This document shows, piece by piece, positions 27,754 through 51,743 of a stretch of 58,764 nt of DNA. The stretch comes from an uncultured Gammaproteobacteria bacterium (GTDB lineage Bacteria > Patescibacteriota > Patescibacteriia > SBBC01 > CAIJZX01). The position numbers and the translations under genes are program-made. The stretch spans positions 1 to 58,764 of the forward strand of contig CAYLHT010000006.1 in the NCBI GenBank assembly GCA_964383765.1. Direction: 5' to 3'. Numbering within the stretch: position 1 is the stretch's first letter; each line of letters starts with the position of its first letter. The notes under the pieces were generated by a model that was not told the DNA's origin, did not search any database, and saw nothing but the letters and a program-made list of their open reading frames with translations.

Positions 27754-27914
27754 AGGTTGGTGTGTTTGAATTTCGGGTTTATACTCAACCATAATGTCAC
27801 AAATCACATCTCGTGCGGGAATCGCATGGGCTCATGCCCACGGGTCAAGCGCCGATGTTCGGCCAACTCTAGCCGGGCCGGAAGTCATAGATGTATCTCA
27901 CAACCTTTAACGGG
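27744..27914. mobile_element. MITE-like element copy 3 (171 bp) between glgA and the GH57 gene
   Basis: TIR TCCCGGTTAGAGGTTG ... CAACCTTTAACGGG(A), with one indel and one mismatch. Flanked by ATGC (27740-27743) and ATGC (27915-27918). Confidence 0.65.
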
Positions 27915-29141
27915 ATGCGCTGGAGTAATTTTTTTCATCTGTATCAGCCGCCGGCCTGGGACGCGGATATCGTGCGCCGGGCGACTGATCAAGCCTACCG
28001 ACCGTTAGTTGATATTCTGGAACGGCATCCAGACGTTAAGATTACCCTCAACATCACCGCGGCGCTGGTTGAACAATTGACATCGCTTGGCTTGGGTGAT
28101 GTGCTGAAAAAAATGCGGGTGCTGGCTGAGCGTGGTCAGGTTGAGCTCGTGGGCAGCGCCGCTTACCACCCGATTCTCCCGCTGTTGCCCGCGCCAGAAA
28201 TAAATCGGCAAATTGAACTTCAAGACCAGGCTCTCAAGCACGTCTTCGGTGCCGCTTACCATCCCAAAGGTTTCTTTCCGCCGGAGATGGCGTACGGTGA
28301 ACCGCTCGACAAGATTTTGTCAGCTCACGGATACGAATGGGTAATTATGGATGAACCGGCCGCCACCGGCACCGTGGGCGATATCGACTTTACCCATCGG
28401 TACCGCACGCCCAACGGACTTGGTGTCGTCTTCCGCAATCGCCATCTCAGCGATTTCTTGTCCTTCTCGGCCGTCATCGAACAACCCGAGGTCTCAGTCA
28501 AGTCGCTGCAAGGCGACCGACGGAGTCAGCAGTTCTTAATTACCGCCATGGACGGCGAGAATCTCGGCCACCATCGCCCCGGTGTCGATAAACTTTGGGA
28601 AGTCCTCGTCACCTGGCCGGGGGTCAGCACCGCCACCATTTCCGAATATCGAAATGAGCTGAAGCAAGAACGCGTGGTCGACGTGATGGCCTCAAGTTGG
28701 TCATCGCAACCAGATGAACTGCAACGCCATATCCCCTACGGCCTTTGGAATCATCCTGATAATCCCATTCATCAGGCCCAGTGGGAATTAACGTATGTAG
28801 TGATCGAAGCGGTCAACGCTCAAACGAAAAGTCCGGCCTATGATACTGCCCGGCGATTACTCGACCAAGCCCTGACCTCCGACAAATACTGGTGGGCCTC
28901 GGCCTCGCCGTGGTGGGATAGCACCATTATTATTCGCGAAACCCAGCGTTTAGCCGACGTGATTGCCCCCCTAGAAAGCTTACCAGCCTCAACCAAGAAT
29001 AAAGTTGAACGGATTATGAAGCGCGTAGCTTCAACGGTCGAACTCTGGGAAAAAACCGGGCTGGCTAAACAACGTCAACAAACGTATTTGCAACACACCG
29101 GCGCCACGCATTTCATGGGTGGACAACAAGTGACGGGATAA
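27915..29141 (+). CDS. glycoside hydrolase family 57 protein
   Basis: Trimmed to MRWSNFFHLYQPP by comparison with the paralog MYWANFLHFYQPP. AMDGENLGHHRPG catalytic region. Confidence 0.75.
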   Translation: MRWSNFFHLYQPPAWDADIVRRATDQAYRPLVDILERHPDVKITLNITAALVEQLTSLGLGDVLKKMRVLAERGQVELVGSAAYHPILPLLPAPEINRQIELQDQALKHVFGAAYHPKGFFPPEMAYGEPLDKILSAHGYEWVIMDEPAATGTVGDIDFTHRYRTPNGLGVVFRNRHLSDFLSFSAVIEQPEVSVKSLQGDRRSQQFLITAMDGENLGHHRPGVDKLWEVLVTWPGVSTATISEYRNELKQERVVDVMASSWSSQPDELQRHIPYGLWNHPDNPIHQAQWELTYVVIEAVNAQTKSPAYDTARRLLDQALTSDKYWWASASPWWDSTIIIRETQRLADVIAPLESLPASTKNKVERIMKRVASTVELWEKTGLAKQRQQTYLQHTGATHFMGGQQVTG

Positions 29142-29175
29142 GCCTGACTTGATATACTGAGGGCCTACAATATAT

Positions 29176-30543
29176 ATGTACTGGGCCAATTTCCTCCACT
29201 TCTACCAGCCACCGACGCAGAAGAAATACTGGATCGATAAAATCACGGCCGAATCGTACCGGCCCCTGGTTCAGGGTTTGCTGCAGCACCCCAAGGCGAA
29301 GGTCACGCTCAACATCAACGGCGTGCTCGACACCCTGCTCGACCAACACGGCCACCGCGACGTGCTCGACGGTATTCGACAGTTACTCGAGCGCGGTCAA
29401 CTCGAACTAACGGGTTCGGCGATGTACCATCCGCTGCTACCGATGCTGCCGGACGATGAAGTCATTCGGCAAATTGAATTGAACACCGCCACCCACCGCA
29501 AGTACTTCGGCGACCTCTACCAGCCCAAAGGTTTCTTCCCGCCGGAGATGGCGTTTTCGAAGCACGTGGCCGAGATCGTGGCGAAGCTTGGGTATGAATG
29601 GATTATCGCGGATGAATTATCGTGCGCCGATCAACATCGGCAAGTTGACTACAGTAAAATTTACACGGTCGAGGGTTTAGATGATTTTGCTATATACTTC
29701 CGCGAACGTGCCACGAGTTTCAAAATTCTGTCCGGTCAACTCGGCACCGGTCAGTTATTGATTCAGGGTCTCAGTGATCGGTTGAAAAAAGACGAATACT
29801 TGTTGACGGCCATGGACGGCGAAACCTTTGGTCATCACCGCCCGGGTTTGGAATTGTTACTCTTTGAAATTGCCGATTCGCCGCAGATTGAGAATGTCTT
29901 GATTACCGATCTACCGAAGCACTTCACCAAGCGCGAGGCGATTGACCCGCGACCGTCGACCTGGGCCCTGATGGAAAAAGATTTGGAGCGCAACAAACCG
30001 TTTTCGCGCTGGCTCGACGATGATAATCCCATTCATAAAGGCCAGTGGGAATTAACACGGCTCGCGATCGACGTCGTGCACAAAGCTAAGTCGACGACCA
30101 AGGGTTTTTCAGCTGCCCGAGAACTCTTGGACCGCGCGCTCCACTCCGATCAATACTGGTGGGCCTCGGCCCGACCATGGTGGTCGCTCGAAATGATTGA
30201 GCGCGGCGCCAAGGAATTGCGCGACTCAATTTTGAAAACGCCGGGCGTCAGCGCCAGCAACAAAACCAAAGCGCAAAAACTCTACGAGCAAGTCATCTTC
30301 ACGGGTTTTGAATGGCAGCGCGAAGGCATTGTCGAACAACTCGCCCATCAAGAAGACGAACAGATCCGCCAGCAAACCGACCAAGCCGTTCCGCAACTTC
30401 CAAAAAAAGAAATTGACGCGATGGTGGCACGCTTGGACAAAGAACGGGTGCAGTTAGCCGAGCGCCAAGAATACGAACGGGCCGCTCAAATTCGGGATCG
30501 GATTAAAGAGCTCCGGTCGTATGAAGCGAAGCCGAACACGTAG
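29176..30543 (+). CDS. glycoside hydrolase family 57 protein with C-terminal UVR-like coiled segment
   Basis: HFYQPP and AMDGETFGHHRPG motifs. The C-terminal QEYERAAQIRDRIKELR resembles a UVR motif. Confidence 0.75.
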   Translation: MYWANFLHFYQPPTQKKYWIDKITAESYRPLVQGLLQHPKAKVTLNINGVLDTLLDQHGHRDVLDGIRQLLERGQLELTGSAMYHPLLPMLPDDEVIRQIELNTATHRKYFGDLYQPKGFFPPEMAFSKHVAEIVAKLGYEWIIADELSCADQHRQVDYSKIYTVEGLDDFAIYFRERATSFKILSGQLGTGQLLIQGLSDRLKKDEYLLTAMDGETFGHHRPGLELLLFEIADSPQIENVLITDLPKHFTKREAIDPRPSTWALMEKDLERNKPFSRWLDDDNPIHKGQWELTRLAIDVVHKAKSTTKGFSAARELLDRALHSDQYWWASARPWWSLEMIERGAKELRDSILKTPGVSASNKTKAQKLYEQVIFTGFEWQREGIVEQLAHQEDEQIRQQTDQAVPQLPKKEIDAMVARLDKERVQLAERQEYERAAQIRDRIKELRSYEAKPNT

Positions 30544-34913: not shown

Positions 34914-34954
34914 TATTATTATACGAACCAAGTTCGCATAATAACGAGATAGGC
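34914..34954 (+). other. attI-like site / first junction (G|ATAGGC at 34948/34949)
   Basis: GATAGGC (34948-34954) is the exact complement of GCCTATC, which opens attC-like site 1. It is preceded by the hairpin TATTATACGAAC-caa-GTTCGCATAATA (34917-34943). Confidence 0.6.
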
Positions 34955-35066
34955 GAAATAGTGCCCTTATTGACAGGAATTTAGTTTCTCGATAAGATTC
35001 TGTGTTCTTTCACAACAAATACTTTTAGGAAGCTTGCTCACGTCGCTTGGAAAGGAGGGTGCCACA

Positions 35067-35294
35067 GTGTTCACGACTCAAAGTACGCTTTCGGTGCTCA
35101 CTGGCTTCGGGTTCATCGCCGCCTGGATTTTTATCGGTTTCTTCGGCATTCACCTCTGGGCGGCCTGCTTTTCAGTGCCTCTTACCTACCGCTGGAAAAC
35201 GTGGCTTGCGATCGTTTTTGGACCCCTGACGTTTTGCCTCGTGGTCGTGTGGATCATCGCGGCTGCAGTGGACGATGTCGTCGAAGATCTGTGA
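35067..35294 (+). CDS. cassette 1: small two-TM membrane protein
   Basis: GTG start 7 nt after AAGGAGGG, in frame with ORF 35034..35294. TTGACA-17-TAAGAT promoter-like boxes at 34969-34997. Confidence 0.5.
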   Translation: MFTTQSTLSVLTGFGFIAAWIFIGFFGIHLWAACFSVPLTYRWKTWLAIVFGPLTFCLVVVWIIAAAVDDVVEDL

Positions 35295-35368
35295 ACGCTC
35301 CTTGTTTCCTTTGCGGGAAGGCCTCGCTTTCCCGCTTCCTAAAAGTATTTGTTGCCGCTAGCACAGTA

Positions 35369-35424
35369 TGCACTACCTCGCCTATCAGCGCGTATACGCC
35401 AAATAGGTTCGGCGTATGACGCGC
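35369..35424 (+). other. attC-like site 1 (short simple-hairpin class)
   Basis: GCCTATC-A-GCGCGTATACGCC-aaataggttc-GGCGTATGACGCGC-AAAC-GTTGTAT. One extrahelical G in the 3' arm. Confidence 0.8.
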
Positions 35425-35504
35425 AAACGTTGTATGCCATAGCGAACATGAAGAGATAAGTGCCTCGATCTCGGGGCGCGTGCCCCAAGTCCGAGGCACA
35501 CATG

Positions 35505-36088
35505 TTCGCCACCGCATACAACAGCGGATATGAGACGAAGGAAATCGGGTTTGGTTTTTAGTAAGTGAAAAAATAGCAGGCTTGGTAGCCTGTTATTTCG
35601 CTTCAGTGAAGATAGTTTTTCAGTCGTTAATCTTCTTCGGAATACACATCACTAATTTCTCGCCGAAGATTATCTAATTCATCATACTTTGCCTGTGATT
35701 CTACAGTAACAACGGGGGTGCTTGCGCCAGGCTTGGGCATGATCTTGCTCATTTCTTCATCGAGTTTTTCCACAATTTGTGGCATACGCATATTATCAGT
35801 AACTTCAATAAACTTTGCCGCACGGTCCCGAAAAGCTTTTTTTGATTCTTCCGTCATTGGTCCCCAAGTCCGACCCTCAAAATCTTCCGGCATATATAGT
35901 GACATTATTAGTTAATATATGGGAAAAATAACATGTGCCCACAAATAAAACAAGTGTTCATTGTAGCTTATTGACAATGTAGCAACCAAACCCGATTTCC
36001 TTCGTGCAAATTGCTACCTCGCTCCGGCGGTGGTAAAATTGTACCGCCGGATCGAAACAGCAACTTCTCATATCCGCAAACGTTAGGA
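35505..36088 (+). other. attC-like site 2 (branched class E, carries an ORF in helix-2 loop)
   Basis: ATACAAC-AGCGGATATGAGA...TCTCATATCCGC-AAAC-GTTAGGA. The inner helix CGAAGGAAATCGGGTTTGG / CCAAACCCGATTTCCTTCG encloses 35627..35905. A third hairpin lies around GGCGGTGGTAAAATTGTACCGCC. Confidence 0.7.
35627..35905 (-). CDS. hypothetical acidic protein (92 aa) located inside attC-like site 2
   Basis: AT-rich ORF. A minus-strand terminator hairpin (AATAACAGGC..GCCTGCTATTTTTT) lies at 35558-35587. Confidence 0.5.
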   Translation of the reverse strand: MSLYMPEDFEGRTWGPMTEESKKAFRDRAAKFIEVTDNMRMPQIVEKLDEEMSKIMPKPGASTPVVTVESQAKYDELDNLRREISDVYSEED

Positions 36089-36191
36089 GAAATAACGCCT
36101 CGCTTGTCTATTGACAGACAAGCACATATATGCCAGGGTTCCCTGGCTCATTAAGCTAACCAAAAAAGTGCACTCCTTCAGGAGGTGCGGC

Positions 36192-36584
36192 ATGACAGCG
36201 AAAGATCCGGAGAAAACTTGGGGGATCGCCCTAAGAGCCGCTAAGAACTATCTCGAGGGCGAGATCCAGAAGCATGAGTGTGGCGATCTTCTGGTAAAAC
36301 TGGAAGATCCCAAGGTTCGTCTCCTCGTGGGCCGCAACGTCAAGTTCCTGCGAACCGTGCAAGGTTTAACAGGATCAGAGCTTGAAGTGGTTGCGGGGTT
36401 GTCCAAGAACCTGGTCGGGAAATTCGAGTCAGGGGTCAAGGTCAACCCACGGTATGTGCTCATGATGGCAGCCACGTTCAAGGTTCTGCCGCACCTCCTG
36501 TTCCGGGAAGACCTGATTGAGCACCTGCGTGGCGTGGTCGCTCAAGAAATCAAAAGGTTCGGGGAGGAAAATCCTCGGTCATAG
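36192..36584 (+). CDS. cassette 3: XRE-family helix-turn-helix protein
   Basis: Trimmed to the ATG after AGGAGG. LRTVQGLTGSELEVVAGLSKNLVGKFESGVKVNPRYVLMMAATF is an HTH_XRE-like motif. Confidence 0.6.
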   Translation: MTAKDPEKTWGIALRAAKNYLEGEIQKHECGDLLVKLEDPKVRLLVGRNVKFLRTVQGLTGSELEVVAGLSKNLVGKFESGVKVNPRYVLMMAATFKVLPHLLFREDLIEHLRGVVAQEIKRFGEENPRS

Positions 36585-36655
36585 CACGTTGGAGGAAGGG
36601 GGCTCGCTCTCTTCCTCCACCCCTTTTTGTTATATTAGAAGCGAGGCGTTACATC

Positions 36656-36794
36656 TCCTAACAGCGCGTAACCGACGCGGTTTCTGGCGTCCGGCGAAGC
36701 CTGCCGCTTGCGAAACCGCTACATTTGCTGGTGTTTAGCCGCTCCGCGGCGTATGATAACACCAGCAAAAGTCGGTTACGCGCGGACGATAGCT
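36656..36794 (+). other. attC-like site 3 (139-bp three-helix class A)
   Basis: TCCTAAC-AGCGCGTAACCGAC...GTCGGTTACGCGC-GGAC-GATAGCT. Inner hairpins are GCGGTTTC..GAAACCGC and TGCTGGTGTT..AACACCAGCA. Confidence 0.85.
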
Positions 36795-37057
36795 GAAATT
36801 CCCTTTTTATTTTTCCGGTTTATCTACCGGAAATACAAAAAACTTTTTTAATTTCTTCTGTTATACTTTTTTTACTTTCCTGCCTGAATTAACATTATTG
36901 CTAGCTCAGGTAGGAGCACCAGCAAGATTCTGCTGATGCTTAAGGTGCTGTGGTCTCGCCCAAGGATTATGGTTTGCCTTGGATCCCCACTCTAGGGCAG
37001 GCGTCGCGGGCGCGACTTAAAGGCCTGACCTTTGGCTCGGTCCAGACTTGTCGCCGA

Positions 37058-37660
37058 TTATCCCTTGAGGAGATAATCGAGCATGAGATGCCAGGACTTC
37101 ACCCAGTCAAAATGTTCCTCACGGAACACTTCGGGATCGGGCTTGTCCTTGCAAATCTCGTACAAGTCGTTGTGACCGAATGGCTTGACCGGGTCACCGC
37201 CGCGCTCATAGGCATTGATCCAGCCCCTGTTGTTCGTCAGGAGCACCCGGCACTCGCCGACCATGAAAGGCGTCGGTTCAGCCTCACTCGCGTTGAAAGC
37301 GTCGAGGCAGGCAGAGGCGGGATGAGCGTGATGGTTCGAGTCGGTCAGCAGGCCTATGCACTTGGCGCCGTTTTTGATTGCGGCGTAAAGTACGAGGAAG
37401 ATGCCAACAGGCATCTCCTGGCCAGCATACGACATCCCCCGGTTGCCAAGGAGCGCAGCGCTGGCTGGCATGAGCAGATCACAGAGCACCACGTCGTACT
37501 GCTGACGGACGCTCTGGATGCTCTCCAGGTGCTCCCCGATCACGAACATGGCCTGCATCGCTTCGTCATACGACGAAACGGCGGTCACATCATGGTCGGC
37601 GAGCTGCGCTTTGGCAGCCCCCAAGTGTTTGGGATTGTCGTCGATCACGAGGATCTTCAT
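37058..37660 (-). CDS. cassette 4: CheY-like receiver-domain protein with unknown C-terminal extension
   Basis: MKILVIDDNPKHL...YDVVLCDLLMP has receiver-like acidic residues. GGGAGGTGA SD, TTGACA hexamer at 37744-37749 (minus), GC-rich. Confidence 0.55.
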   Translation of the reverse strand: MKILVIDDNPKHLGAAKAQLADHDVTAVSSYDEAMQAMFVIGEHLESIQSVRQQYDVVLCDLLMPASAALLGNRGMSYAGQEMPVGIFLVLYAAIKNGAKCIGLLTDSNHHAHPASACLDAFNASEAEPTPFMVGECRVLLTNNRGWINAYERGGDPVKPFGHNDLYEICKDKPDPEVFREEHFDWVKSWHLMLDYLLKG

Positions 37661-37829
37661 GCGGTCACCTCCCGATTGGAGTGGGTTTTGGTCAAAGGTC
37701 TAGCTAAAACGAGACCGGCCAGCATAGCATGGCCAATTCTTTTTGTCAATAGTTAGGCCAACTATAGAAATTAAAAAAGTTTTTTTGTATACGTTCCGTC
37801 AAAACGGAACAAAATAAAAAGGGAACATC

Positions 37830-37954
37830 AGCTATCAGCGCGTAAGCGGCTCCGGCTTACTCCGTTCCTCCGTAAGCCTGCGCCTAAGTTGCGCGAGTGT
37901 CGCCTTCGGCATATTATACACTCGCGCAACTTCGCTTACGCGCGGACGTTGTGC
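37830..37954 (+). other. attC-like site 4 (125-bp three-helix class B)
   Basis: AGCTATC-AGCGCGTAAGCG...CGCTTACGCGC-GGAC-GTTGTGC. Inner hairpins are GGCTTAC-tccgttcctcc-GTAAGCC and TTGCGCGAGTGT..ACACTCGCGCAA. Confidence 0.85.
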
Positions 37955-38045
37955 GCCATCGTGTTTTTTTGTAAAACAAATGAGACCCTTATTTATACTC
38001 CTTGGGTCTCAGTAGGAGTGTGGGCGCCTAGCCCTTCTATGAACC

Positions 38046-38393
38046 TTACGATTTCAGATATGCGGGCTTGTCCTCGACGAACAGTCGCCCCTTGCGCAGG
38101 TCCGTAGCGTAGACGCCCTCGACCATACGAAGGTGCGGCCACTTGCTGTCGGTGACATACGCGTTGAAGTGCCAGACATCAGCCGCACCGTGCAGAACGT
38201 CGTCGTTTTCTGCGCCAGCCGTGGTCGACCCTCGCGCCAGTTGATCGATGAACATGTGGATCGCGCCCAAGCCACCGAGATGCATGATGACTGGGAGGCG
38301 ATGGCCGTGCTGGTTGGTTTCTCCAGCACCCAACGAAGCGAGCAGATTATACTTGCTCGGTCCGTCGACGACGTTCAACGGTTGCTTTGACAT
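38046..38393 (-). CDS. cassette 5: hypothetical protein (115 aa), GC-rich
   Basis: Trimmed to MSKQPLNV..., preceded by GAAGGAGA. TTGACA hexamer at 38513-38518 (minus). Confidence 0.5.
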   Translation of the reverse strand: MSKQPLNVVDGPSKYNLLASLGAGETNQHGHRLPVIMHLGGLGAIHMFIDQLARGSTTAGAENDDVLHGAADVWHFNAYVTDSKWPHLRMVEGVYATDLRKGRLFVEDKPAYLKS

Positions 38394-38554
38394 AACGAAT
38401 CTCCTTCTGTAAGGAGCCTGGCGCACTTGTACGGCGGCGCCCACCCTTCTCCGTTTCCGGAGGGCTCGATCATCCGATCGAACAAAGTAGGTTAGCATGA
38501 AATGCTGCAATTTGTCAAGCCCGAATGTTTCTTAAAACGAAAAAACACGACAGC

Positions 38555-38693
38555 GCACAACAGCGCGTAACCGCCTCGGTTTCTGGCGTCCGGCATAGCC
38601 GTCCGCTTCCGAAACCGCTACATTTGCTGGTGTTTAGCCGCTCCGCGGCGTATGATAACACCAGCAACAGTCGGTTACGCGCAAACGTTGTCC
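38555..38693 (+). other. attC-like site 5 (class A)
   Basis: GCACAAC-AGCGCGTAACCG...CGGTTACGCGC-AAAC-GTTGTCC. Near-identical core to sites 3, 7 and 15. Confidence 0.85.
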
Positions 38694-38779
38694 GAAAATT
38701 TGCCTCCCTCGTTGTAAGATAAGCGCGGTTTCCATAAAATAAAGATGGTTGTTACTCTTCCTAAGGTATAGCAGACAAT

Positions 38780-39373
38780 ATGTCCCTATTTAACAAACGT
38801 TTAGATTCGTACGATAGTCAGGTACTCCAAACTCTTGAGAACCAAGTGAACGTATTATTCTCAGTACTTGGAGAATCGCCAAATGAGATGCATAAATTGG
38901 CCAAGAAGTTTCTTGATCAAAGTATTAGGTTATCAGAAAAGAATGGATATCGACATAAAACCAATCTTGGTGATGAAAGAATAAAGGATGTGACTTGGCT
39001 AAACAAACGAATAGCTGAAGGGTTGACCGCGGAAGACTGTAAAGATTTCTGGAATCGTGCACACGAAGTGATCTTGGGTGAATTTATCATTAATGATGTT
39101 TGGAGAAGGGGTCGAGCAAATGCATACAAGCTAACTGGGATGTCCTGGGAAGATGCTGTTAAAAGGGTTCAAAAAGATCACATCATTTATGGCGAACCAG
39201 ATCAAATTGAAGGAGGCTTCATTGGCGACAGTCGGTATATTTATCCTGAATTTGCGAAAAGATTTGAACACTGGAGAAGTACTGTCACCACCGAGCAAGA
39301 AGTAGAGCTATCTCAAAAGTATGAGACATATAATGCAATGGTTAGGGATCTGATCATTAAGAACAAAATCTGA
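38780..39373 (+). CDS. cassette 6, gene 1: hypothetical protein (197 aa), AT-rich
   Basis: Clean ORF with no recognisable motifs. Confidence 0.5.
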   Translation: MSLFNKRLDSYDSQVLQTLENQVNVLFSVLGESPNEMHKLAKKFLDQSIRLSEKNGYRHKTNLGDERIKDVTWLNKRIAEGLTAEDCKDFWNRAHEVILGEFIINDVWRRGRANAYKLTGMSWEDAVKRVQKDHIIYGEPDQIEGGFIGDSRYIYPEFAKRFEHWRSTVTTEQEVELSQKYETYNAMVRDLIIKNKI

Positions 39374-39381
39374 AGACGCAA

Positions 39382-39789
39382 ATGCCACAAACGAAATATG
39401 ATCAATCAATAATAAAAGAAGCGGTCCGCCACATTCAGAACGAATGGGATAATTTCAAGATATGTTATCAACAGTTGCACAGCCCAAACAATGCTATTTA
39501 CTTTGAATGTTTCTTATTGCACGCTCGGAATTTATATGATTTTTTCTTTACACCCAAGAAAATAAATGATGATGTTACTATAACCGACTTTGTTCCTTCT
39601 CCTTTAAAAGGTAATTCATACGTATTCCCAAAAGAGGCGATAAATAAACAGCTAAGCCATATCACATATTCAAGAGTTATTAATCCAATAAATTTATTCC
39701 CGGAACAGGATCAAATCTATTCCTACATCCACAACACACTTATCGATTACAATAATATTGCAGATGAGAGATACCGAATAACGGAATGA
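39382..39789 (+). CDS. cassette 6, gene 2: hypothetical protein (135 aa), AT-rich
   Basis: ORF 8 nt downstream of gene 1, probably co-transcribed. Confidence 0.5.
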   Translation: MPQTKYDQSIIKEAVRHIQNEWDNFKICYQQLHSPNNAIYFECFLLHARNLYDFFFTPKKINDDVTITDFVPSPLKGNSYVFPKEAINKQLSHITYSRVINPINLFPEQDQIYSYIHNTLIDYNNIADERYRITE

Positions 39790-39827
39790 AACCGCGCTTA
39801 TCTTTATGGGTCGGTCGGCAAATCTAC

Positions 39828-39885
39828 GGACAACAGCGAGTCATACGAAATAGCAAGTACTTCGTATGACTCGCAAACGTTGTAC
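39828..39885 (+). other. attC-like site 6 (short simple-hairpin class)
   Basis: GGACAAC-A-GCGAGTCATACGAA-atagcaagtac-TTCGTATGACTCGC-AAAC-GTTGTAC. Confidence 0.85.
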
Positions 39886-39959
39886 GAAATGGAGCGAGGT
39901 TTATGTAAATGAAGAGACCGCCCACAACGCGTTAGCGTGGGGCGGCCTTTGTCGCTGAT

Positions 39960-40262
39960 CTACAGCAACTTGAACGTACCTACAGGGCGATCGGCGTTTT
40001 CGTCCGTGGACTCGACGACCCATACGTTCGGTACCACACCCGGAACGTACTTGAGACGTCGGATCGTGACCCCTTGGAACCGGGGCGAAGACACATACAG
40101 CGCGATGCCTTCCTTGTCGCCGTACCCGATTGAAGTCACTGTTCCCGCGATCATGTGAGAGCTACCGAACAGGAACGGCCGCCCCACGATCTGCGTCGGA
40201 TTGTCGGGCAAACCACAGTCCGTAAGTGCTTGGCCGAACTGCGCTTCGTTCAACTGGAACAT
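39960..40262 (-). CDS. cassette 7: hypothetical protein (100 aa), GC-rich
   Basis: Trimmed to MFQLNEAQ..., preceded by AAGGAGGA. TTGACA-17-TTAAAT boxes at about 40332-40360 (minus). Confidence 0.5.
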   Translation of the reverse strand: MFQLNEAQFGQALTDCGLPDNPTQIVGRPFLFGSSHMIAGTVTSIGYGDKEGIALYVSSPRFQGVTIRRLKYVPGVVPNVWVVESTDENADRPVGTFKLL

Positions 40263-40380
40263 CGCAATCCTCCTTGTCGTTGCTACGTACACAGAGAGTG
40301 GCTGGCCAAACCTGGTGCGAACGAACTGGGCATTTAAGCACAGTTTCTCTGTACTGTCAAGGCCAACCTCGCTCCAAATC

Positions 40381-40519
40381 GTACAACAGCGCGTAACCGA
40401 CGCGGTTTCTGCCGCCCGGCGAAGCCGTTCGCATTCGAAACCGCTAAGTTTGCTGGCGTTAAGCCGCTCCGCGGCGTATGATAACACCAGCAAAAGTCGG
40501 TTACGCGCGGACGATAGTC
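40381..40519 (+). other. attC-like site 7 (class A)
   Basis: GTACAAC-AGCGCGTAACCGAC...GTCGGTTACGCGC-GGAC-GATAGTC. Confidence 0.85.
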
Positions 40520-40807
40520 GAAATATTTATTTTCTTTTTTCGGGCTAACGCCCGATTGTTTACAAAAATTTTCCAATTTCTTTTTCTCTTGAATAGAGGG
40601 GAAGTGGGTGTTTTCTCCGCTTCGCTGCGAAAACGCTTTGTTTTTGAGGGGAATCTAAAATAGCAAAACGAAACTGGGGAAAGCATGTTAATTCGCTGAA
40701 ATACGTCATTTCTCATGAAAATAAAGCTCTTCATCATATACCGGCTTGACAAGTAATATACATACGTTATACCCTTACTCAGGGTATATAATTATAAAAG
40801 GTGGTAT

Positions 40808-41029
40808 ATGGCAGCGGAATTAAGCAAACGCGACCGTTTCAAAAAACTGGCTGTTTATCGTACAAACGAAGTTTTGAAGCGACTCAAGGTCCTAGGAAAT
40901 TGTTCAAATAGAAGTGCGTACGAATACACTGAGGAAGAAGTAAATAAGATTTTTCAAGAAATTGACCGCCGGACTAAGGAAGTAAAGTCAAAGTTTTATT
41001 TTCCTAAAAATCGAAACTTTCAGCTGTAA
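40808..41029 (+). CDS. cassette 8, gene 1: small basic protein (73 aa)
   Basis: First ORF of a tightly coupled three-gene operon (TAATG overlap with the next gene). Promoter-like TTGACA-16-TATACC at 40746-40773. Confidence 0.5.
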   Translation: MAAELSKRDRFKKLAVYRTNEVLKRLKVLGNCSNRSAYEYTEEEVNKIFQEIDRRTKEVKSKFYFPKNRNFQL

Positions 41030-41925
41030 TGAAACATAACTTACCAAAACTTGCGTATAAAACTCCCTACGGCAAGATGTTCCAGGGCCTTGCTGAGCAG
41101 GTTCTTGATTCATCCAAGTTGAAACGGTATGAAGGCAAAGTTCAATTGATTTTCACTTCCCCGCCGTTTCCTCTAAACCGAAAGAAAAGGTACGGCAATA
41201 TTAAAGGTGATCCATACATTAGTTGGCTCACAAGCTTTGCGGAACTTTTTAAAAAATATTTAAAGAAAAGCGGTTCAATTGTAATTGAAATGGGAAATTC
41301 ATGGGAGCCGGGAGAGCCTATTATGTCCACCCTTGCTCTCCGTTCTTTGATCGCCTTTCACGACGTTGGAAACTATAATTTGTGCCAACAATTTGTCGTG
41401 TATAATCCGGCGCGTTTACCAAGTCCAGCGCAATGGGTCACCATTGAAAGAATTAGGGTAAAAGATGCATTTACCCACTTTTGGTGGATGTCGCCTTCTG
41501 TTAACCCAAAAGCAAGCAACAAACGAGTTTTGTCAGAATACAGTGCTTCTATGAAGCGTCTTTTGGCTAGTAAAAAATATAATGCCGGTAAAAGACCTTC
41601 GGAACATAACATTGGTGCAACGTCTTTCTTAAAAAACAACAAAGGCGCGATTAGTTCAAATGTCATTACGGCATCAAACACGAATTCCAGTGATAATTAC
41701 CAAAAGTATTGTCGAGAAAAGGGCATTGACCCTCACCCTGCAAGGATGCAAATGAAGGTCGCCGAATTTTTTATTAAGTTCCTCACTAATAAAAATGATT
41801 TAGTGCTTGATCCTTTTGCGGGGAGTAATACAACTGGAGCAGCGGCCGAGTATCTAAAACGCAAATGGATTTCTATTGAACCGTTGAAGTCGTATATTCA
41901 AGGTTCTAAAGGAAGATTCTTATGA
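41029..41925 (+). CDS. cassette 8, gene 2: DNA methyltransferase, beta-class (N4-cytosine or N6-adenine)
   Basis: Motif IV FTSPPFP comes near the N-terminus and motif I LDPFAGSNTTGAAA near the C-terminus (order IV then I). SPPF is typical of N4C/N6A enzymes. Confidence 0.75.
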   Translation: MKHNLPKLAYKTPYGKMFQGLAEQVLDSSKLKRYEGKVQLIFTSPPFPLNRKKRYGNIKGDPYISWLTSFAELFKKYLKKSGSIVIEMGNSWEPGEPIMSTLALRSLIAFHDVGNYNLCQQFVVYNPARLPSPAQWVTIERIRVKDAFTHFWWMSPSVNPKASNKRVLSEYSASMKRLLASKKYNAGKRPSEHNIGATSFLKNNKGAISSNVITASNTNSSDNYQKYCREKGIDPHPARMQMKVAEFFIKFLTNKNDLVLDPFAGSNTTGAAAEYLKRKWISIEPLKSYIQGSKGRFL

Positions 41926-44195
41926 AACTTGATGAGTTATTCAAACGATTTTCGATTGGAGAAGATATTGATGTTCTAAGTTCTGCCTTAGAAAAGTTTG
42001 TTTCAGAAAACAGAGACGCGGATTGGCATCCTATCGGGGATAAAATCAATAATAAAGGCCCGATTGAAGTCTCAGCTGACCCAGGGCGAGCATTAGTTGA
42101 AAGAGTTACTAATGCTGCTGACGCAGTTTTAGAGCTTGAGCATCATAAACATAACGGACAACCCGAGTGTCGAAGTCCACGTGAAGCGGCAACAGCTTGG
42201 CTGAATGTTCCCAATGAGGGCTTAAGTAAATTATCTACCGCCGAGCGTCGATCTTTGGCTCAAAAAGTTAAAGTAACTATCCAAAAGGGACGTACACGCC
42301 AAAACAGGATTTTTTCAGTGCGAGATTTAGGTCTCGGCATTCTTCCAGAGGACATGGGAAAGACAATCCTTTCACTTAATGAAAGCAATAAACTAGAAAA
42401 GCACTACCTGGCCGGTACTTACGGGCAAGGAGGTTCAGCAACTTTCAGTGTTAGCCAACTCTCATTTATTGCCAGTAGGAAGGCCGGTCAGAATAAAGTG
42501 GGATTCACAGTGGTGAAGTATCAAGAACTGGATCCTGAGCGGTACAAAACGGGTAATTATGTTTATCTAAGGATTAATGATCAAGTTCCTGTATTAGAAA
42601 CTAGTGATCAGGCCTTCCCTGCTGGAACACTAGTTAGGCATTTTGGTTATGACCTTAGTAAATATAACTCTTCGCTGGGCTCAGCAAGTGTATATGGCTT
42701 ATTAAATCAAGTTCTTTTTGACCCCGTGCTTCCAATTTGGCTCGACGATGACGTACAGGGATATCGAAGAACTATTAAAGGTTCCCGGAATGCGCTAAAT
42801 GGAGCTGTTGATGAAGAAGGCAAGGGCCCGTCACTTGTTCACAATATGCCTATGTTTTTTGTCGAACTGCCGGAGTATGGGCGCATAGGAATTGAGTATT
42901 GGGTTCTCGAAAGACCAACTAGTGCAGGAAAGAATCCTGCTGAAGCGTTTGTTAATTCGTCAAAACCCATTGTTCTTTCCTTAAACGGACAGAATCACGC
43001 TGAGTTGCCCAAGCTTCTCATTACCAAAGAGGCTGGAGTTCCGTACCTTGGTAACAGAGTTATTGTGCATATAGACTGCAACAGCTTGACTGGTTATGGC
43101 AAACGTAAACTTTTTTCCTCAAATCGTGAGGATGCTCGTCAGGGCCATGCACTTGAGTTAATCCGCAAAGAGGTTGTTAAAGCTCTCAATTCGGACGATG
43201 AGCTTATTAAGTTGAATAATGAAGCAAAACAATCGGTGGAAAGACAGCGAGACGAAAGCACCGTAAAGGAGATGAAAGCAGAAGTCGCTAGATTATTGAG
43301 GCTACAGGGACTCGAAATTGCAGAAGATGTTGGTTCTTCGGGGAAAAAAGGTAAAACTTCTGGAAAACGCCCTGTCCATCCAGGCCCTGGGCCATCAGTC
43401 CTTCCCCCTATAGAAATTCATGAACCACCAACTTATATTAATATTCTTTGGGATCCCGAAAAAACAATTTCATTCTATTCTGGTCAGCGACGTTATTTGC
43501 GGATTATTACTGACGCGAGCGAATCGTATCACAATGTCACAAACCCCAACCTATCGAAAGTAAATGTAATTATTTCTGGTGGAAATGATATACAGATGAA
43601 AGGAAGCACTCCTCTAAAAGGAGGAAGAATGCGTTTAATTCTCCAAGGTTCCTCTGATAAAGTTGGCACAAAACTAAAAATACGAGTCGAGCTTCAAAGA
43701 TCGGGCATGCCAGCATTATTTGATGAAAGAGAAATGGAGATGGTAAAAGAACCTGAGAAACCTAAATCTGAGTCCAGACCGACTTTGCCACCTTTTGAGG
43801 TCATTCCTGTTGGCCAAACTGACACAGACACGTGGTCAATGTTACAGTGGCCCGAAAACGTAGCCGGAGTTGCGTGTTCGGCTCTGGAAGATCAGGGCAC
43901 GCATACTGTTTATTACAATACTGATTTTCCTAAGTATGCTGAGCAGAAGGCGCAGCTTGAATCTAGAGATGTATCAATGTCTCAGTCTTTCACGAAGCGC
44001 TACGAGATTTGGCTTGCAGTCTATTCTTTATTGATGAAACAAGATGAAGAAAACGGCGTGAATAAAGACATAGAAATTGACCCAGACGTTTTGTCGAATA
44101 TTGAACGTCAAGAAAGAATTAGGACAGCAGTAATGTCAGTCATGTTCGCAAAGCGAGAGGTTCAATTTGAAACCAACACTGAAGCCGAAGAATAA
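41922..44195 (+). CDS. cassette 8, gene 3: large GHKL-type ATPase-like protein (757 aa)
   Basis: Bergerat-fold motifs ERVTNAADAV (N box), RDLGLGILPEDM (G1) and GTYGQGGSATF (G2). The long C-terminal region is uncharacterised. ATGA overlap with the methyltransferase gene. Confidence 0.55.
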   Translation: MKLDELFKRFSIGEDIDVLSSALEKFVSENRDADWHPIGDKINNKGPIEVSADPGRALVERVTNAADAVLELEHHKHNGQPECRSPREAATAWLNVPNEGLSKLSTAERRSLAQKVKVTIQKGRTRQNRIFSVRDLGLGILPEDMGKTILSLNESNKLEKHYLAGTYGQGGSATFSVSQLSFIASRKAGQNKVGFTVVKYQELDPERYKTGNYVYLRINDQVPVLETSDQAFPAGTLVRHFGYDLSKYNSSLGSASVYGLLNQVLFDPVLPIWLDDDVQGYRRTIKGSRNALNGAVDEEGKGPSLVHNMPMFFVELPEYGRIGIEYWVLERPTSAGKNPAEAFVNSSKPIVLSLNGQNHAELPKLLITKEAGVPYLGNRVIVHIDCNSLTGYGKRKLFSSNREDARQGHALELIRKEVVKALNSDDELIKLNNEAKQSVERQRDESTVKEMKAEVARLLRLQGLEIAEDVGSSGKKGKTSGKRPVHPGPGPSVLPPIEIHEPPTYINILWDPEKTISFYSGQRRYLRIITDASESYHNVTNPNLSKVNVIISGGNDIQMKGSTPLKGGRMRLILQGSSDKVGTKLKIRVELQRSGMPALFDEREMEMVKEPEKPKSESRPTLPPFEVIPVGQTDTDTWSMLQWPENVAGVACSALEDQGTHTVYYNTDFPKYAEQKAQLESRDVSMSQSFTKRYEIWLAVYSLLMKQDEENGVNKDIEIDPDVLSNIERQERIRTAVMSVMFAKREVQFETNTEAEE

Positions 44196-44327
44196 ATAGT
44201 TGTTTGCTAGTCGCCGGGCATTCACCCCTTTAATTCCCCTCTGCCCGGCGACCGATTGAGAAAAAGAAATTGGAAAACTTTTGTAAACAAGTCCCGCTGC
44301 CGCGGGACAAAATAATATAAATACATC

Positions 44328-44453
44328 GACTATCAGCGCGTTTGCGGCTACGGCTCGCTCCGTTCCTCCGCGAGCCTTCGCCTATATTGCGCGGGTGTCG
44401 CCTTCGGCATATGATACACCCGCGCAACAATCGCAAACGCGCGGACGTTAGGC
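44328..44453 (+). other. attC-like site 8 (class B)
   Basis: GACTATC-AGCGCGTTTGCG...CGCAAACGCGC-GGAC-GTTAGGC. Inner hairpins are GGCTCGC-tccgttcctcc-GCGAGCC and TTGCGCGGGTGT..ACACCCGCGCAA. Confidence 0.85.
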
Positions 44454-44503
44454 GACATTTTACTCAAAAATAATTATCTGTATATTGTGGGACGAAAAGT
44501 TTC

Positions 44504-44989
44504 ATGATCAAAGCATTTGTCAGCGACTTTTCCAGAGTCCTGTTATCACCGAAAGATGACAGCTACACCGAAGGACTAAATGCGCTGCATAAAAAACTGT
44601 CATCCGGTGGAGATTATGACTTTTGGTCATACTTTCGACTAAATCAAGATTTGCTTACTTTTTACAAAAAACTTAGCGCGGATATTCCTATTTATATGTT
44701 TACCACCGAGTATATTCAGGAACATCCAGCGCTTCAACCTGAACTAGCTGGAGTTTTCAAAAAAGTTTTTAGTGGGGCGGGTTTGCACTTGGAAAAAACT
44801 GATCCGCAATCATACTACTTCATCGCCAGAGAGCTTGGACTTAACACAAATGAAGTCTTGTACTTAGATGATAAACAAGCAAATCTTGATGCTGCTAAAA
44901 AAGCTGGTATGACTGTTATCGCTTATGAAGCAAACGAACAAGCACAACAGGATATCACTAAAACATTGAAAAACTTTTCGTCCCAATAA
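44504..44989 (+). CDS. cassette 9: HAD-superfamily hydrolase-like protein
   Basis: FVSDFSRVLL (motif I-like) and LYLDDKQANLDAAKKAGM (motif III/IV-like). Confidence 0.55.
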   Translation: MIKAFVSDFSRVLLSPKDDSYTEGLNALHKKLSSGGDYDFWSYFRLNQDLLTFYKKLSADIPIYMFTTEYIQEHPALQPELAGVFKKVFSGAGLHLEKTDPQSYYFIARELGLNTNEVLYLDDKQANLDAAKKAGMTVIAYEANEQAQQDITKTLKNFSSQ

Positions 44990-45014
44990 GTTAAATTATT
45001 TTTGAGAAAACGCC

Positions 45015-45646
45015 GCCTAACACGGGCTAGCCGGAGAGCGAACGAAATACTACTTTAATCTATGAGTTTCTACATTATTATTCGAGGTCCGCTCGGCTGC
45101 GGAAAATCTACGATTTCAGAAAAGCTATCTCAGCAATTCAATGCTGAACATATTGCAGTTGATCGCGTTCTTGACGAACACAATCTTACCGAAGACAAAG
45201 AGGACGGTTACATTTCACAAACAAGTTTCAAGCGAGTGAATGAATTAATCGCTCCGAAAGCACAATCATTATTAGAAAATGGAAAAACCGTTATCTTTGA
45301 CGGGAACTTTTACTGGAAATCACAGCTTGATGACTTAATTCAACGCCTGGATTTCCGCCATTACGTTTTCACACTGAAAGCACCACTTGAACTCTGCATC
45401 GAACGCGATCAAGCGCGAGACAAAACTCATGGGAAAGACGCAGCCGAGGCCGTATACAATAAATCAACTTCTTTTGAATATGGCACGTTGATTGATACAA
45501 CTGGAATTATTGACGAAACGGTACAGAAAATTCTTGAACATTTGCCAATAACAAAGTAGTATTTCGTTCGCTCTCCAAAATTGCGTAAGTGTACGCTTCG
45601 CGATAGTATACACCTACGCAACTTCGGCTAGCCCGAAACGTTGTGC
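45015..45646 (+). other. attC-like site 9 (class B-related, carries an ORF in helix-2 loop)
   Basis: GCCTAAC-ACGGGCTAGCCG...CGGCTAGCCCG-AAAC-GTTGTGC. The 20-bp helix GAGAGCGAACGAAATACTAC / GTAGTATTTCGTTCGCTCTC encloses 45062..45559. The third hairpin TTGCGTAAGTGTA..TACACCTACGCAA resembles class B. Confidence 0.7.
45062..45559 (+). CDS. P-loop kinase-like ATPase (AAA_33-like) located inside attC-like site 9
   Basis: Walker A IIIRGPLGCGKSTISEKL. Small nucleotide/metabolite kinase-like size (165 aa). Confidence 0.6.
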   Translation: MSFYIIIRGPLGCGKSTISEKLSQQFNAEHIAVDRVLDEHNLTEDKEDGYISQTSFKRVNELIAPKAQSLLENGKTVIFDGNFYWKSQLDDLIQRLDFRHYVFTLKAPLELCIERDQARDKTHGKDAAEAVYNKSTSFEYGTLIDTTGIIDETVQKILEHLPITK

Positions 45647-45762
45647 GCCATAAAATCTCGGCTTCGAATATTTAAAGAAGGTTTCCTGAATCAGATCATT
45701 ATGGTCACATCGAAAATCATGGCTTATACTTAGAACAGTCTTTTCAATAAACCTACAAATTT

Positions 45763-46392
45763 ATGCTCAAAAAAGCTTTCCTGCTTGCGGTAATAGCCTT
45801 CAGCATTGCCGTCACCGCTATTCCTGCTTCAGCCGCAACGAAAACAAAAATCTACACAAACCGGTCACTGGGATTTTCGTTGAAGTACAATGCGAAATTC
45901 CAATGGTCGACTGGTGGGTGCGACAATGCTCATAATAATATTTTTTTTCAACTCAATCCGTCCGATAAACTCAAATTGGAGAAAACTCAGCGTACCTATG
46001 ATATAGGTGTGCAATTATTGAATTTTAACGATGACGGGTGTTCTTTTGCTGTAACAATAGGACCGAAACTAAGAAAAACCTTACGGACAAGGGGTTGGGC
46101 TTCATTCATTTCTCAATATATAAAAGAAGTTGTCGACCCGAATCCATTCGAATCTGTTGCGGTTCAGGCGTACGGCTTAAATGGATATACCGCAACCATT
46201 ATTACAACCCATGAAAAGGGAGTTCAATATGTTGGTGGAACTGTCGAACACCATATTCTTGTCACTTCTGATAAAGTACATGTTTATGACATTAGCGATC
46301 AATTATATTCACCAAACTACAAAAAAATATTTTCCCCCAATCCCTACGCATACGACTTTCGTGCACTCGCACAAAGTTTCCGTATTCTCTAA
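45763..46392 (+). CDS. cassette 10: secreted hypothetical protein
   Basis: Signal peptide MLKKAFLLAVIAFSIAVTAIPASA. No recognisable domain. Confidence 0.5.
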   Translation: MLKKAFLLAVIAFSIAVTAIPASAATKTKIYTNRSLGFSLKYNAKFQWSTGGCDNAHNNIFFQLNPSDKLKLEKTQRTYDIGVQLLNFNDDGCSFAVTIGPKLRKTLRTRGWASFISQYIKEVVDPNPFESVAVQAYGLNGYTATIITTHEKGVQYVGGTVEHHILVTSDKVHVYDISDQLYSPNYKKIFSPNPYAYDFRALAQSFRIL

Positions 46393-46439
46393 GCTTTCTT
46401 GAAACAGTCACCTGAAGAACAACGCCGAGATTTTACGGC

Positions 46440-46551
46440 GCACAACACGGCGTATACGACATCCCTTCCTCTCTTCGGGGGTAACTCGCACAGCTCGATA
46501 TTCTACCCCCTGCGTTCAGTCGGGACGGTCGTATACGCCGAAACGTTGTAC
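46440..46551 (+). other. attC-like site 10 (112-bp class C)
   Basis: GCACAAC-ACGGCGTATACGAC...GTCGTATACGCCG-AAAC-GTTGTAC. Inner hairpin GGGGTAA..TACCCC. Homologous to site 13. Confidence 0.8.
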
Positions 46552-46631
46552 GCCATGGCGAACATGAAAGTATAAGTGCCTCGACCTCGGGGCGCGTGCC
46601 CCAAGTCCGAGGCACACATGTTCGCCACAGC

Positions 46632-47612
46632 ATACAACAGCGGATATGAGACGGAGGAAATCGGGTTTGGTTTTTTTATAGCAAGAAACCCCCGGAAGGC
46701 ACAGTTGTCCTTGCGGGGGCTGCGATCACGATGATCGCGAAGGTTCATTCAATGGGTAGAGAGTGTTCAGGCCAATGCGACTCGATGGGTCTCGCGGGAC
46801 AACCCATGCAGTCCGGCATACGTAGCCAGGATCTGGCTGGCTGTCATCACCTTACACGGATTCTCAGCATTCACGTCCATTTCGACGTCGTTGATCATGC
46901 CAGATTCGTAGATCCGCACATGAGGCTCGCCGATCTTGTCGTACGCACGGAAGACCGTGAACACCAGGTAATGCGGAAACCACATGGTGGCGCTTCCCTC
47001 GCCGCCGTACAGCCGGATGGTCGCGGTCACTCGCCGAAGCTCGTGCCGAACGTCCTGCGCTGGGGCATCGGGGAACGACCGCTCGAATGGGCCGATGAGA
47101 GCGTCGATCTCGACGATTCGGAACATGTCCGAATAGTACTTCAGCTCATTCTCGGCGCGGTCCTGACGCGAGCCGAAGCCTTTTCGGGACACCGGCGGGG
47201 CCGTTACGTTGGAGCGGTAGAGCTGGATTCCAGGACCGTACAGCTTGGCCAGCTCGGCTCGCAACAGCTCCTCTGCGAGTGACACTGAAAAGGGTCGGTC
47301 GGAACGATGCAGTTTCTTGAACATGGTATTCCTCCCATCACGGGAGCGTATAGGGATATTCCTACACGGCTACCATCTCGGCAGCGAACTAGCCAAGAGT
47401 ATTAACCTCTCTGCTAAATCGCTACCGAGGTACGGATGGAAGAGCTGAAATGAACAAACAGGTCACACTACACTATATACTGGCATTTGTCAATGCCAGA
47501 CACAAAAAACCAATTCCCATTTCCTCCGTCCAAATTGCTGCTTCGTTCCGGCGGTAGTATAATTGTACCGCCTCCACTTCGCAGCAACTTCTCATATCCG
47601 CGGACGTTGTAT
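46632..47612 (+). other. attC-like site 11 (class E, carries an ORF in helix-2 loop)
   Basis: ATACAAC-AGCGGATATGAGA...TCTCATATCCGC-GGAC-GTTGTAT. The inner helix CGGAGGAAATCGGGTTTGGTTTTTT / AAAAAACCAATTCCCATTTCCTCCG encloses 46767..47324. Homologous to site 2. Confidence 0.7.
46767..47324 (-). CDS. hypothetical protein (185 aa), GC-rich, located inside attC-like site 11
   Basis: GGGAGGAA SD 7 nt before the ATG. TTGACA hexamer at 47488-47493 (minus). Preferred over the antisense ORF 46731..47282. Confidence 0.5.
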   Translation of the reverse strand: MFKKLHRSDRPFSVSLAEELLRAELAKLYGPGIQLYRSNVTAPPVSRKGFGSRQDRAENELKYYSDMFRIVEIDALIGPFERSFPDAPAQDVRHELRRVTATIRLYGGEGSATMWFPHYLVFTVFRAYDKIGEPHVRIYESGMINDVEMDVNAENPCKVMTASQILATYAGLHGLSRETHRVALA

Positions 47613-47688
47613 GAAATATACTTTTCCTTTCCGCCTATCGGCTACTGCTTTTCTGAATGAGCAAATTTGATTAGTTACAAAAAGCAAC

Positions 47689-51742: not shown

Positions 51743-51743
51743 A

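Follow-up and report, generated by a model that had tools for sequence, protein, structure and literature searches.

Branched attC-like sites in an integron-like gene-cassette array of a Patescibacteria genome

The window, that is, the whole analyzed stretch of 58,764 nucleotides, belongs to a genome of Patescibacteria (CPR) and contains an array of gene cassettes flanked by chromosomal genes, including those for rRNA, CCA-adding enzyme, glycogen synthases and PBP1a. The named homologs of the glycogen synthase come from Kerfeldbacteria and other Patescibacteria MAGs. The array comprises 16 attC-like sites in the same orientation, with an attI-like site at its left end and, next to that, a divergently oriented gene encoding a tyrosine recombinase (Table 1). 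Four of the 16 sites form a class of long, GC-rich repeats, denoted class A (A1 to A4), which are the main subject of this analysis.

The closest relative of the window by synteny is the locus L085, with a glycogen synthase that is 82% identical. The entire unit of recombinase gene, attI and array (34005-54407, 20.4 kb) is missing from the syntenic region of this locus (L085:16597-18788), where the GalT-like and tyrosyl-tRNA synthetase genes abut or overlap. The last junction of the array (G↓TTAGACC; here and below, the arrow marks the junction or crossover), which coincides with the stop codon of the synthetase gene, is homologous to C↓TTAGGTC in L085. In another locus, L084, the recombinase gene adjoins the same GalT-like gene. 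The joint absence of the recombinase and the array from L085 implies that the platform is accessory or itself mobile. The GC skew in the 58.8-kb window, considered as an indicator of a terminus (dif) location, was discarded as weak and confounded by the foreign cassettes. Outside the array, the window contains a 300-nt direct repeat with 75% identical copies 406 nt apart (16044-16343 and 16450-16749), and two tandem paralogous genes (27891-30543) that share several matching stretches of 50-70 nt and have counterparts annotated as Glyco_hydro_57 in L084 and L085.

Table 1. Positions of the recombinase gene, attI, cassette array and class A sites in the window
Feature	Position	Strand	Remarks
Tyrosine recombinase, 283 aa	34014-34865	-	directly left of the array and divergent from it
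attI, dif-like core	34931-34959	+	left arm AGTTCGCATAA, center TAACGAG, crossover after G34948, right arm ATAGGCGAAAT
Cassette array	34949-54407	+	16 attC-like sites, all +; last junction abuts stop codon of tyrosyl-tRNA synthetase gene
Start of the cassette ending in A1	36083-36105	+	reverse complement of 36639-36662 except positions 10-11
A1 outer stem, 5' strand	36639-36651	+	AAGCGAGGCGTTA
Class A site A1	36656-36794	+	by folding, alignment and covariance model
A1, R''	36656-36662		TCCTAAC
A1, spacer	36663		A, unpaired
A1, helix 1	36664-36676		paired with 36771-36783
A1, hairpin 2	36677-36719		
A1, hairpin 3	36724-36769		
A1, bulge	36784-36787		GGAC
A1, crossover	36788		G
A1, last six bases	36789-36794		ATAGCT, already part of the following cassette
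A2 outer stem, 5' strand	38537-38550		partner at cassette start, 37959-37971
Class A site A2	38555-38693	+	crossover G 38687
A3 outer stem, 5' strand	40365-40376		partner at cassette start, 39890-39901
Class A site A3	40381-40519	+	crossover G 40513, then ATAG instead of TTAG
Class A site A4	53584-53718	+	site 15 of the original prediction; crossover G 53712; three compensatory pair changes
Shared starts, cassettes after A1 / A3	36789-36857 / 40514-40582		
Shared ends, cassettes after A1 / A3	37776-37959 / 44274-44457		
Promoter-like elements	36011-36039, 47530-47560, 37890-37925, 44390-44425, 45583-45615		

The original prediction described the class A repeats as four copies of a single architecture with an outer helix and two hairpins, and both alignment and folding of the two strands agree with it. 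With DNA parameters, either strand of each copy folds into a 12-13 bp helix that carries two hairpins, that is, the same three-way junction, with folding energies of -42 to -51 kcal/mol (z -6.7 to -8.5) that none of 200 shuffles equals. All three predicted helices are correct; only the leading A of the strand given as 'AGCGCG' (36663) is not part of the helix, being an unpaired 1-nt spacer. The mean column identity among the four copies is 91% across the sites and 85% including the flanks. At 135-139 nt, the class A sites are within the range of the imperfect palindromes of about 57-141 nt that fold as hairpins in attC sites.

Substitutions in the helices are compensated. Both changes predicted for A4 are present (pair 16-121, A-T to G-C; pair 71-112, T-A to A-T), and we detected a third one (pair 69-114, T-A to C-G). 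Against a consensus structure drawn up by hand, with 47 pairs, the four copies have 95.7% of their cells paired; sliding the partners by 1-3 columns lowers this share to 31-43%. The four-copy covariation value is attained in 7 of 500 shuffles because all three double changes sit in A4 alone. A covariance model built from the four copies, which themselves score 158-170 bits, recovered a fifth full-length copy with 130 bits, L004:293-436(-), on a metagenome contig of another organism, whose recombinase is 72% identical to that of the window. This sole new copy, where randomly broken helices would have spoken against the prediction, retains every helix; it differs in loop sequence and contains two further compensatory pairs, C-G to U-A at the tip of hairpin 2 and G-C to U-A at the tip of hairpin 3. 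In the alignment of the five copies, fitted to the covariance model, 5 pairs (7 cells) are changed on both sides, the pairing is still 95.7%, and 0-1 of 500 shuffles match. The class-A-specific support for the hairpins thus comes from five copies in two organisms, with the changes confined to A4 and the L004 copy.

Within the window, the plus-strand matches of the covariance model all fall inside the cassette array (35380-53723), and no match was found in 15 further loci. A search of viral contigs with the outer-helix pattern yielded 0 matches, and an exact search of the metagenome collection with the invariant 20-mer of hairpin 3 (GCCGCTCCGCGGCGTATGAT) yielded none. The single match to this 20-mer in the genome collection, inside a coding region of an Anaerolineales MAG, was dismissed as a chance match. 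Judging from these exact 20-mer searches, the loop of hairpin 3 is not widely conserved; it also differs in the L004 copy. Class A, with 4 of the 16 sites in the window, is a GC-rich and unusually stable local version of a broader type (about -45 kcal/mol, compared with -8 to -30 kcal/mol for most other sites), and the class A repeat is an ordinary member of the local site family.

To describe this family, we compiled a non-redundant set of 45 sites that are built alike; the 23 sources comprise the window and metagenome loci. The sites were chosen by complementarity at stem positions 1-9; only positions 10-12, the diversity of pair types and the test against cassette starts described below are independent of the selection. 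At their 5' end, all 45 carry (A/T)AC, and at their 3' end ACG↓(T/A)T, in agreement with the inverse core boxes of attC sites, R'' (RYYYAAC) and R' (G↓TTRRRY); the 5' boxes of class A are TCCTAAC, GCACAAC, GTACAAC and GCCTAAC. Stem positions 1, 2, 4, 5 and 8-10 each display 3-5 Watson-Crick pair types, and positions 10-12 are paired in 93-100% of the cases. Thus, the predicted conservation of pairing rather than sequence holds within class A and, much more strongly, across the 45 sites.

Beside the R stem, four bases (RRAC) on the 3' side face a lone A on the 5' side, after which the next stem, of 12-13 bp, is unbroken and without a bulged base. Extrahelical bases of the canonical attC kind were not found in the L stem, and the sites are irregular only in the 4-versus-1-nt loop bordering the R stem and in a 2x2 mismatch on the outer side of that stem. 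At least two hairpins are carried on the stem by 33-34 of the 42 long sites (~80%); the motif CC(C/A)A(A/T)ATT occurs in 19 of these 33-34 branched sites and, in the folds that were examined, lies between the two hairpins. The three-way junction is therefore the norm in this family. The original prediction considered such a junction unusual as the dominant class, which does not hold given the branched majority of long sites here and the branched tips of the VCR sites. The bottom strand is more stable than the top one in 40 of the 45 sites (mean 2.1 kcal/mol, p 5.5e-8) and, in the full class A sites, by 3.4-5.8 kcal/mol; this bias could stem from base composition. We also considered the inner stem as a copy of the left arm of attI; the two have only a (G)TATA-like core in common, at a variable offset, and no claim is made.

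The sites in the array end in ...ACGC(G/C)C-RRAC-G↓TT(A/G)NNNG(A/C)(A/C)AT. For A1, A2, A3 and six others, an exact reverse complement of the 5' box, 8-9 nt long, lies at and after the G of the previous site, that is, at the start of the cassette that the given site closes (8/8 to 9/9 matches in A1, A2 and A3); the box of A4 matches only if a 1-nt deletion at the previous junction is allowed. A 5' box that is the reverse complement of the start of its own cassette is the signature of circularizing cassettes with the crossover at G↓TT. Across the family, an exact 9-mer of the cassette start was found within 6 kb upstream for 29 of the 45 sites, compared with 1 of 45 in the downstream control. 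The complementarity is 9 nt long and is then broken, at position 10 in 26 and at position 11 in all 29 of these cases; beyond the break, it resumes for at least 12 nt in about two thirds of the cases and runs to about 70 nt in the site class that follows A1 and A3.

In a circularized cassette, a class A site folds, from the outside inward, into an outer stem of 12-13 bp, a 2x2 loop, an R stem of 9-10 bp, a 3-nt bulge, a 13-bp stem and the three-way junction. For A1, the start of the cassette is predicted from this complementarity to complete the R stem by its far half and to provide the outer stem with its 3' strand. The site boundaries of the original prediction leave out this outer stem, which extends at least 12-13 bp beyond the R box and forms only in the circular cassette.

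After A1, A3 and attI, the canonical TT is replaced with AT (G↓ATAG...). The cassettes that start with AT after A1 and A3 have TATC, not TAAC, in their own 5' boxes (37830-37836 and 44328-44334), and the T-to-A change at position 2 (G↓AT) is always paired with TATC in the R'' of the same cassette. The base at position 2 thus travels with the cassette, which places the crossover 5' of this base; in the system of the window, the 'GTT' triplet is not invariant at its middle base. Both the junction preceding A4 (G↓TAGTCG) and the final site of the array look decayed, so that some cassettes may be immobile.

The GC content of the array is locally as low as 37-48%. The cassettes after A1 and A3 have starts of about 60 nt and ends of about 180 nt in common and carry different cargo; the shared starts represent the far strand of the ~70-bp outer stem of their own site class. 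A 141-nt repeat with a long palindrome inside (93% identical; 35419-35559 and 46535-46675) is located just after sites 1 and 10, and the cassettes that open with it end in the same site class (35984-36048 and 47508-47572, 85% identical). At 45015-45646, one attC-like site is split by a gene, with the 5' box and one stem half at 45015-45036 and the 3' half at 45622-45646; its 'hairpin 2' is a perfect 24-bp inverted repeat (45033-45056 and 45553-45576), with an AAA_33 kinase ORF (45062-45559) in the loop of about 500 nt. A cassette of about 3.9 kb (40808-44195) encodes an N6/N4 DNA methylase (41029-41925) followed by a 757-aa ORF without a Pfam match, and is possibly a restriction-modification cassette. 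Another one, at 47689-50472, contains three genes, for a DFP/aldolase fusion, a methyltransferase and a class IV aminotransferase, and is large for an integron cassette.

Several site classes contain promoter-like elements on the cassette strand inside hairpin 3, such as TTGCTA-N17-TAAAAT, TTGCTG-N17-TATAAT and TTGCGY-N17-TA(T/G)(T/G)AT, which may drive the next cassette; TAAAAT or TATGAT loops are likewise common among the related loci. Promoter-like sites are not enriched in the array (35, compared with 30.3 +/- 5.1). A promoter in class A itself, with TATGAT in the asymmetric loop of hairpin 3, was rejected on account of its 21-nt spacing and because the scan did not call it.

The recombinase matches the phage-integrase fold and the integron integrase family TIGR02249 as its best Pfam and NCBIfam hits, the latter in two pieces with 218.9 bits, below the cutoff of 265 bits; the score against the archaeal XerA model is nearly the same, 210 bits. 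The nearest solved protein is the integron integrase IntI4 (PDB 2a3v), both by sequence (151 bits) and by predicted fold (AlphaFold pLDDT 83; Foldseek E 1.7e-16, 32-33% identity), with archaeal XerA as the next solved relative. However, residues 183-245 of IntI4, the region of the IntI-specific domain, remain unmatched; the recombinase has 20 residues in their place, modelled without a helix. Thus, the gene adjacent to the array does not encode an IntI with the IntI-specific additional (I2) domain. The homologs of 56-76% identity span 266-318 aa, all but one being shorter than 305 aa, and those with names are mostly from Patescibacteria; the catalytic residues R144, K169, H233, R236, H259 and Y268 are invariant in 23 homologs. 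An exact-sequence lookup of the window recombinase returned nothing on record. The IntI-specific insertion is held to define integron integrases or to be essential for them (Ghaly 2022; Smyshlyaev 2021, PMC8138268).

The attI site has the architecture of a Xer/dif-type core, with 11-bp inverted arms around a 7-nt center (11-7-11), the centers of such cores being 6-8 bp long. Its consensus, A.TTCGYATAA-WAACGAG-TTAT..GAAAT, was derived from 56 sources with 53 distinct sequences upstream of the recombinase gene, and the distance to that gene is about 110 nt in the four loci that were checked. The attI of the window resembles the dif site of E. coli (GGTGCGCATAA TGTATA TTATGTTAAAT). Its right arm (ATAGGCGAAAT) is the start of cassette 1, and the R arm of the attC-like sites, TTRNNNGAAAT, represents the same consensus as the right arm of attI. 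The variable cassette sequence starts exactly where the center of attI meets the right arm, and AACGAG of the center is always retained at the first junction, as expected if the exchange occurs only at the boundary of the right arm.

In 23 of the 33 loci with at least 1 kb of flanking sequence, the expected reverse-complement 9-mer, with A and a stem behind it, closes the first cassette, compared with 0 matches in the control; several of the other loci contain arrays by the motif criterion, and the site motif upstream of the recombinase gene is strongly strand-biased. The linkage in 23 of 33 loci and the additional motif-based arrays indicate that the recombinase, attI and the cassettes constitute a recurrent unit. 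The attI motif TTCGYATAAWAACGAGTT also occurs in 12 contigs of the viral collection (L087-L098, IMG/VR).

We consider it probable that the class A repeats are attC-analogue sites of four mobile cassettes in an integron-like platform of Patescibacteria. This reading builds on the anatomy, covariation and cassette signature of the sites, the conservation of attI and the domain missing from the recombinase; from these, we infer which strand reacts, that single strands are exchanged and that the neighboring recombinase is the enzyme. The site would fold when the DNA is single-stranded, most likely as the bottom strand. The 9-bp R stem would carry the crossover, 5'-..YAA↓C on the bottom strand, corresponding to G↓TT on the top strand, and would be followed by the 3-4 nt bulge, an uninterrupted stem of 12-13 bp and a variable tip, in class A consisting of two GC-rich hairpins. 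In the excised circular cassette, the conserved 2x2 mismatch and the outer stem of at least 12 bp would extend the R stem outward.

The folded duplex would mimic the adjacent attI with its 11-7-11 dif-like core, such that the neighboring I2-less, IntI/Xer-like recombinase could bind both sites and swap the bottom strands only, at the boundary between the center and the right arm. Bound to the right arm, the recombinase would cleave the strand that reads 5'-arm↓center, which is the bottom strand (..YAA↓C), and replication would resolve the resulting junction, as it does in integrons and in the integration of the CTX phage at dif. The presence of a single junction boundary and the unlike centers of attI and the sites fit such an exchange of single strands followed by replication. 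In place of the extrahelical bases of canonical sites, the bulge and the 2x2 mismatch may determine the choice of the strand and block the second cleavage. The two class A hairpins are the branched tip typical of the family and are probably not read base by base; their compensatory changes reflect selection for the fold.

An alternative that we regard as improbable is double-stranded Xer recombination, as proposed for the pdif modules of Acinetobacter, with the junctions functioning as duplex dif-like sites and both palindromes and hairpins being incidental. The regular duplex core of attI and the right arm of the same consensus at every junction are compatible with such a mechanism, but the two halves of every site form an inverted repeat and covary with each other, and neither the conserved asymmetry of 1 versus 4 nt nor the conserved 2-nt mismatch would have a role in a duplex site. 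Furthermore, the centers differ, WAACGAG in attI and RAACG in the sites, which disfavors the exchange of two strands, and the sites all have one orientation, unlike those of pdif modules.

It is also improbable that the locus is part of an ordinary integron with canonical attC sites and an IntI encoded elsewhere, the neighboring gene being the Xer of the cell that happens to adjoin a CALIN-type array, one with cassettes but no integrase. To be sure, the R''/R' boxes (YAAC ... G↓TTR) and the length, orientation and cassette signature of the sites are all canonical, and the recombinase family has been read earlier as Xer of candidate phyla (Smyshlyaev 2021, PMC8138268). Several observations conflict with this explanation: at least 23 of 33 independent loci show the first cassette linked to the conserved attI and the recombinase gene, the R arm of the sites and the right arm of attI share a consensus, the stems lack the extrahelical bases that the I2 domain of canonical IntI is described as recognizing, and recombinase and array are both missing from L085.

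Finally, palindromic repeats without a role in recombination, such as REP-like elements, transcription terminators or structured RNA, which could account for very stable intergenic hairpins and for the T-rich tracts after A1 and A3, are a highly improbable explanation: no Rfam family matches within the array, the two strands adopt folds of equivalent form, copies are confined to the borders between cassettes, the cassette starts to which the boxes correspond lie hundreds to thousands of bases from them, and terminator-like sites show only a modest excess (31, compared with a shuffle mean of 22.3 +/- 4.2), with none called in a class A site.

Beyond the identification of the class A repeats as probable attC analogues, the broader interpretation, that this is a natural I2-less integron in which a Xer-like relative of IntI with a dif-like attI acquires gene cassettes by way of folded single-stranded sites, a bulge and mismatches taking the place of extrahelical bases, and that such integrons are widespread in Patescibacteria, is one that we put forward tentatively. 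If it is true, the system would be a 'missing intermediate' between Xer/IMEX systems and integrons, or an independent parallel. The gain of the I2 helix, which reads the extrahelical bases of attC, is thought to have enabled recombination of folded single strands by integron integrases, raising the chicken-and-egg question of how I2 or attC could have been selected without the other (Escudero 2016). In the absence of known intermediates, an origin of integrons from a Xer-like ancestor hijacked by single-stranded IMEX at dif has been proposed (Escudero 2020). The platform of the window matches the stage postulated in these two studies: it unites an IntI-like enzyme that lacks I2, a dif-like attI and attC-like cassettes whose sequence signatures suggest that they work, and may show how integrons arose and bear on the question of I2 versus attC. 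Its proteins and sites, among them the very stable class A site, are also suited to existing strand-specific recombination assays. Surveys that require the IntI-specific domain would miss such platforms as complete integrons. Patescibacteria make up a large but little-known share of bacterial diversity, and their traffic of gene cassettes may therefore be overlooked. In a literature search, which was not exhaustive, we found no description of integron, attC or Xer cassette systems in Patescibacteria/CPR.

Compared with attC and VCR (Vibrio cholerae repeat) sites, the sites of the window are likewise imperfect palindromes that close, on the 3' side, cassettes of one orientation; they share the boxes YAAC ... 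G↓TTR and the crossover at G↓TT, a 5' box that matches the start of their own cassette, and near-identical site classes within one array. The branched variable tip of the long sites is also shared, being known from the VCR sites of sedentary chromosomal integrons (Bouvier 2009). The window sites probably work like attC sites, with which they agree in four respects: boxes, palindrome, cassette signature and array context. They differ in that the L stem has no extrahelical bases and a bulge of 4 versus 1 nt is found instead of the symmetric central spacer, which is unpaired in attC; in that the R arm is conserved over 11 nt (TTRNNNGAAAT) and a 2x2 mismatch and an outer stem lie beyond the R box; and in that the presumed cognate recombinase of the platform lacks I2 and its attI is dif-like. 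Hence, the attC-like identity in the original prediction is borne out as regards recombination sites whose boxes match the start of their own cassette, whereas they are not attC sites in the strict sense, which have 2-3 extrahelical bases in the L box that set the choice of the strand and are served by an IntI with I2.

With the integron integrases VchIntIA/IntI4, the window shares a recombinase gene that is divergent from the array and located beside attI, and IntI4 is the best solved match; the window enzyme, with its 283 aa, has no counterpart of IntI4 183-245 and scores below the TIGR02249 cutoff. The lack of I2 and the target core with 11-bp inverted arms are instead features of Xer/dif and IMEX systems. 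As in IMEX such as the CTX phage, with its single-stranded forked hairpin at dif, a folded single strand would mimic a duplex site, as proposed here for the window, and insertions accumulate in tandem at one site. In contrast to Xer/IMEX insertions, those of the window are 16 gene-sized cassettes of 0.5-3.8 kb that lack phage and replication genes, share one orientation and each possess an attC-like site. The modules of the pdif type are bounded by duplex 28-bp sites that alternate in orientation; the window sites, all in one orientation and each a long palindrome, do not form such modules. The location of attI just upstream of the recombinase gene resembles that of difSL relative to xerS (PMC1914069). 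The 'Cand' subgroup comprises simple, Xer-related tyrosine recombinases of candidate phyla that were grouped with housekeeping enzymes of the Xer type (Smyshlyaev 2021, PMC8138268); the window recombinase, the named homologs of which come from Patescibacteria MAGs, is a putative member. Cassette arrays and folded sites are not mentioned in that study.

Three features of the platform are unusual, namely, an I2-less recombinase that is nearest to IntI4, a dif-like attI with the 11-7-11 layout, and sites free of extrahelical bases with a 4-versus-1-nt bulge and an outer stem. A branched tip as such is already known from VCR; it is the site family and the enzyme that are new within the integron kind.
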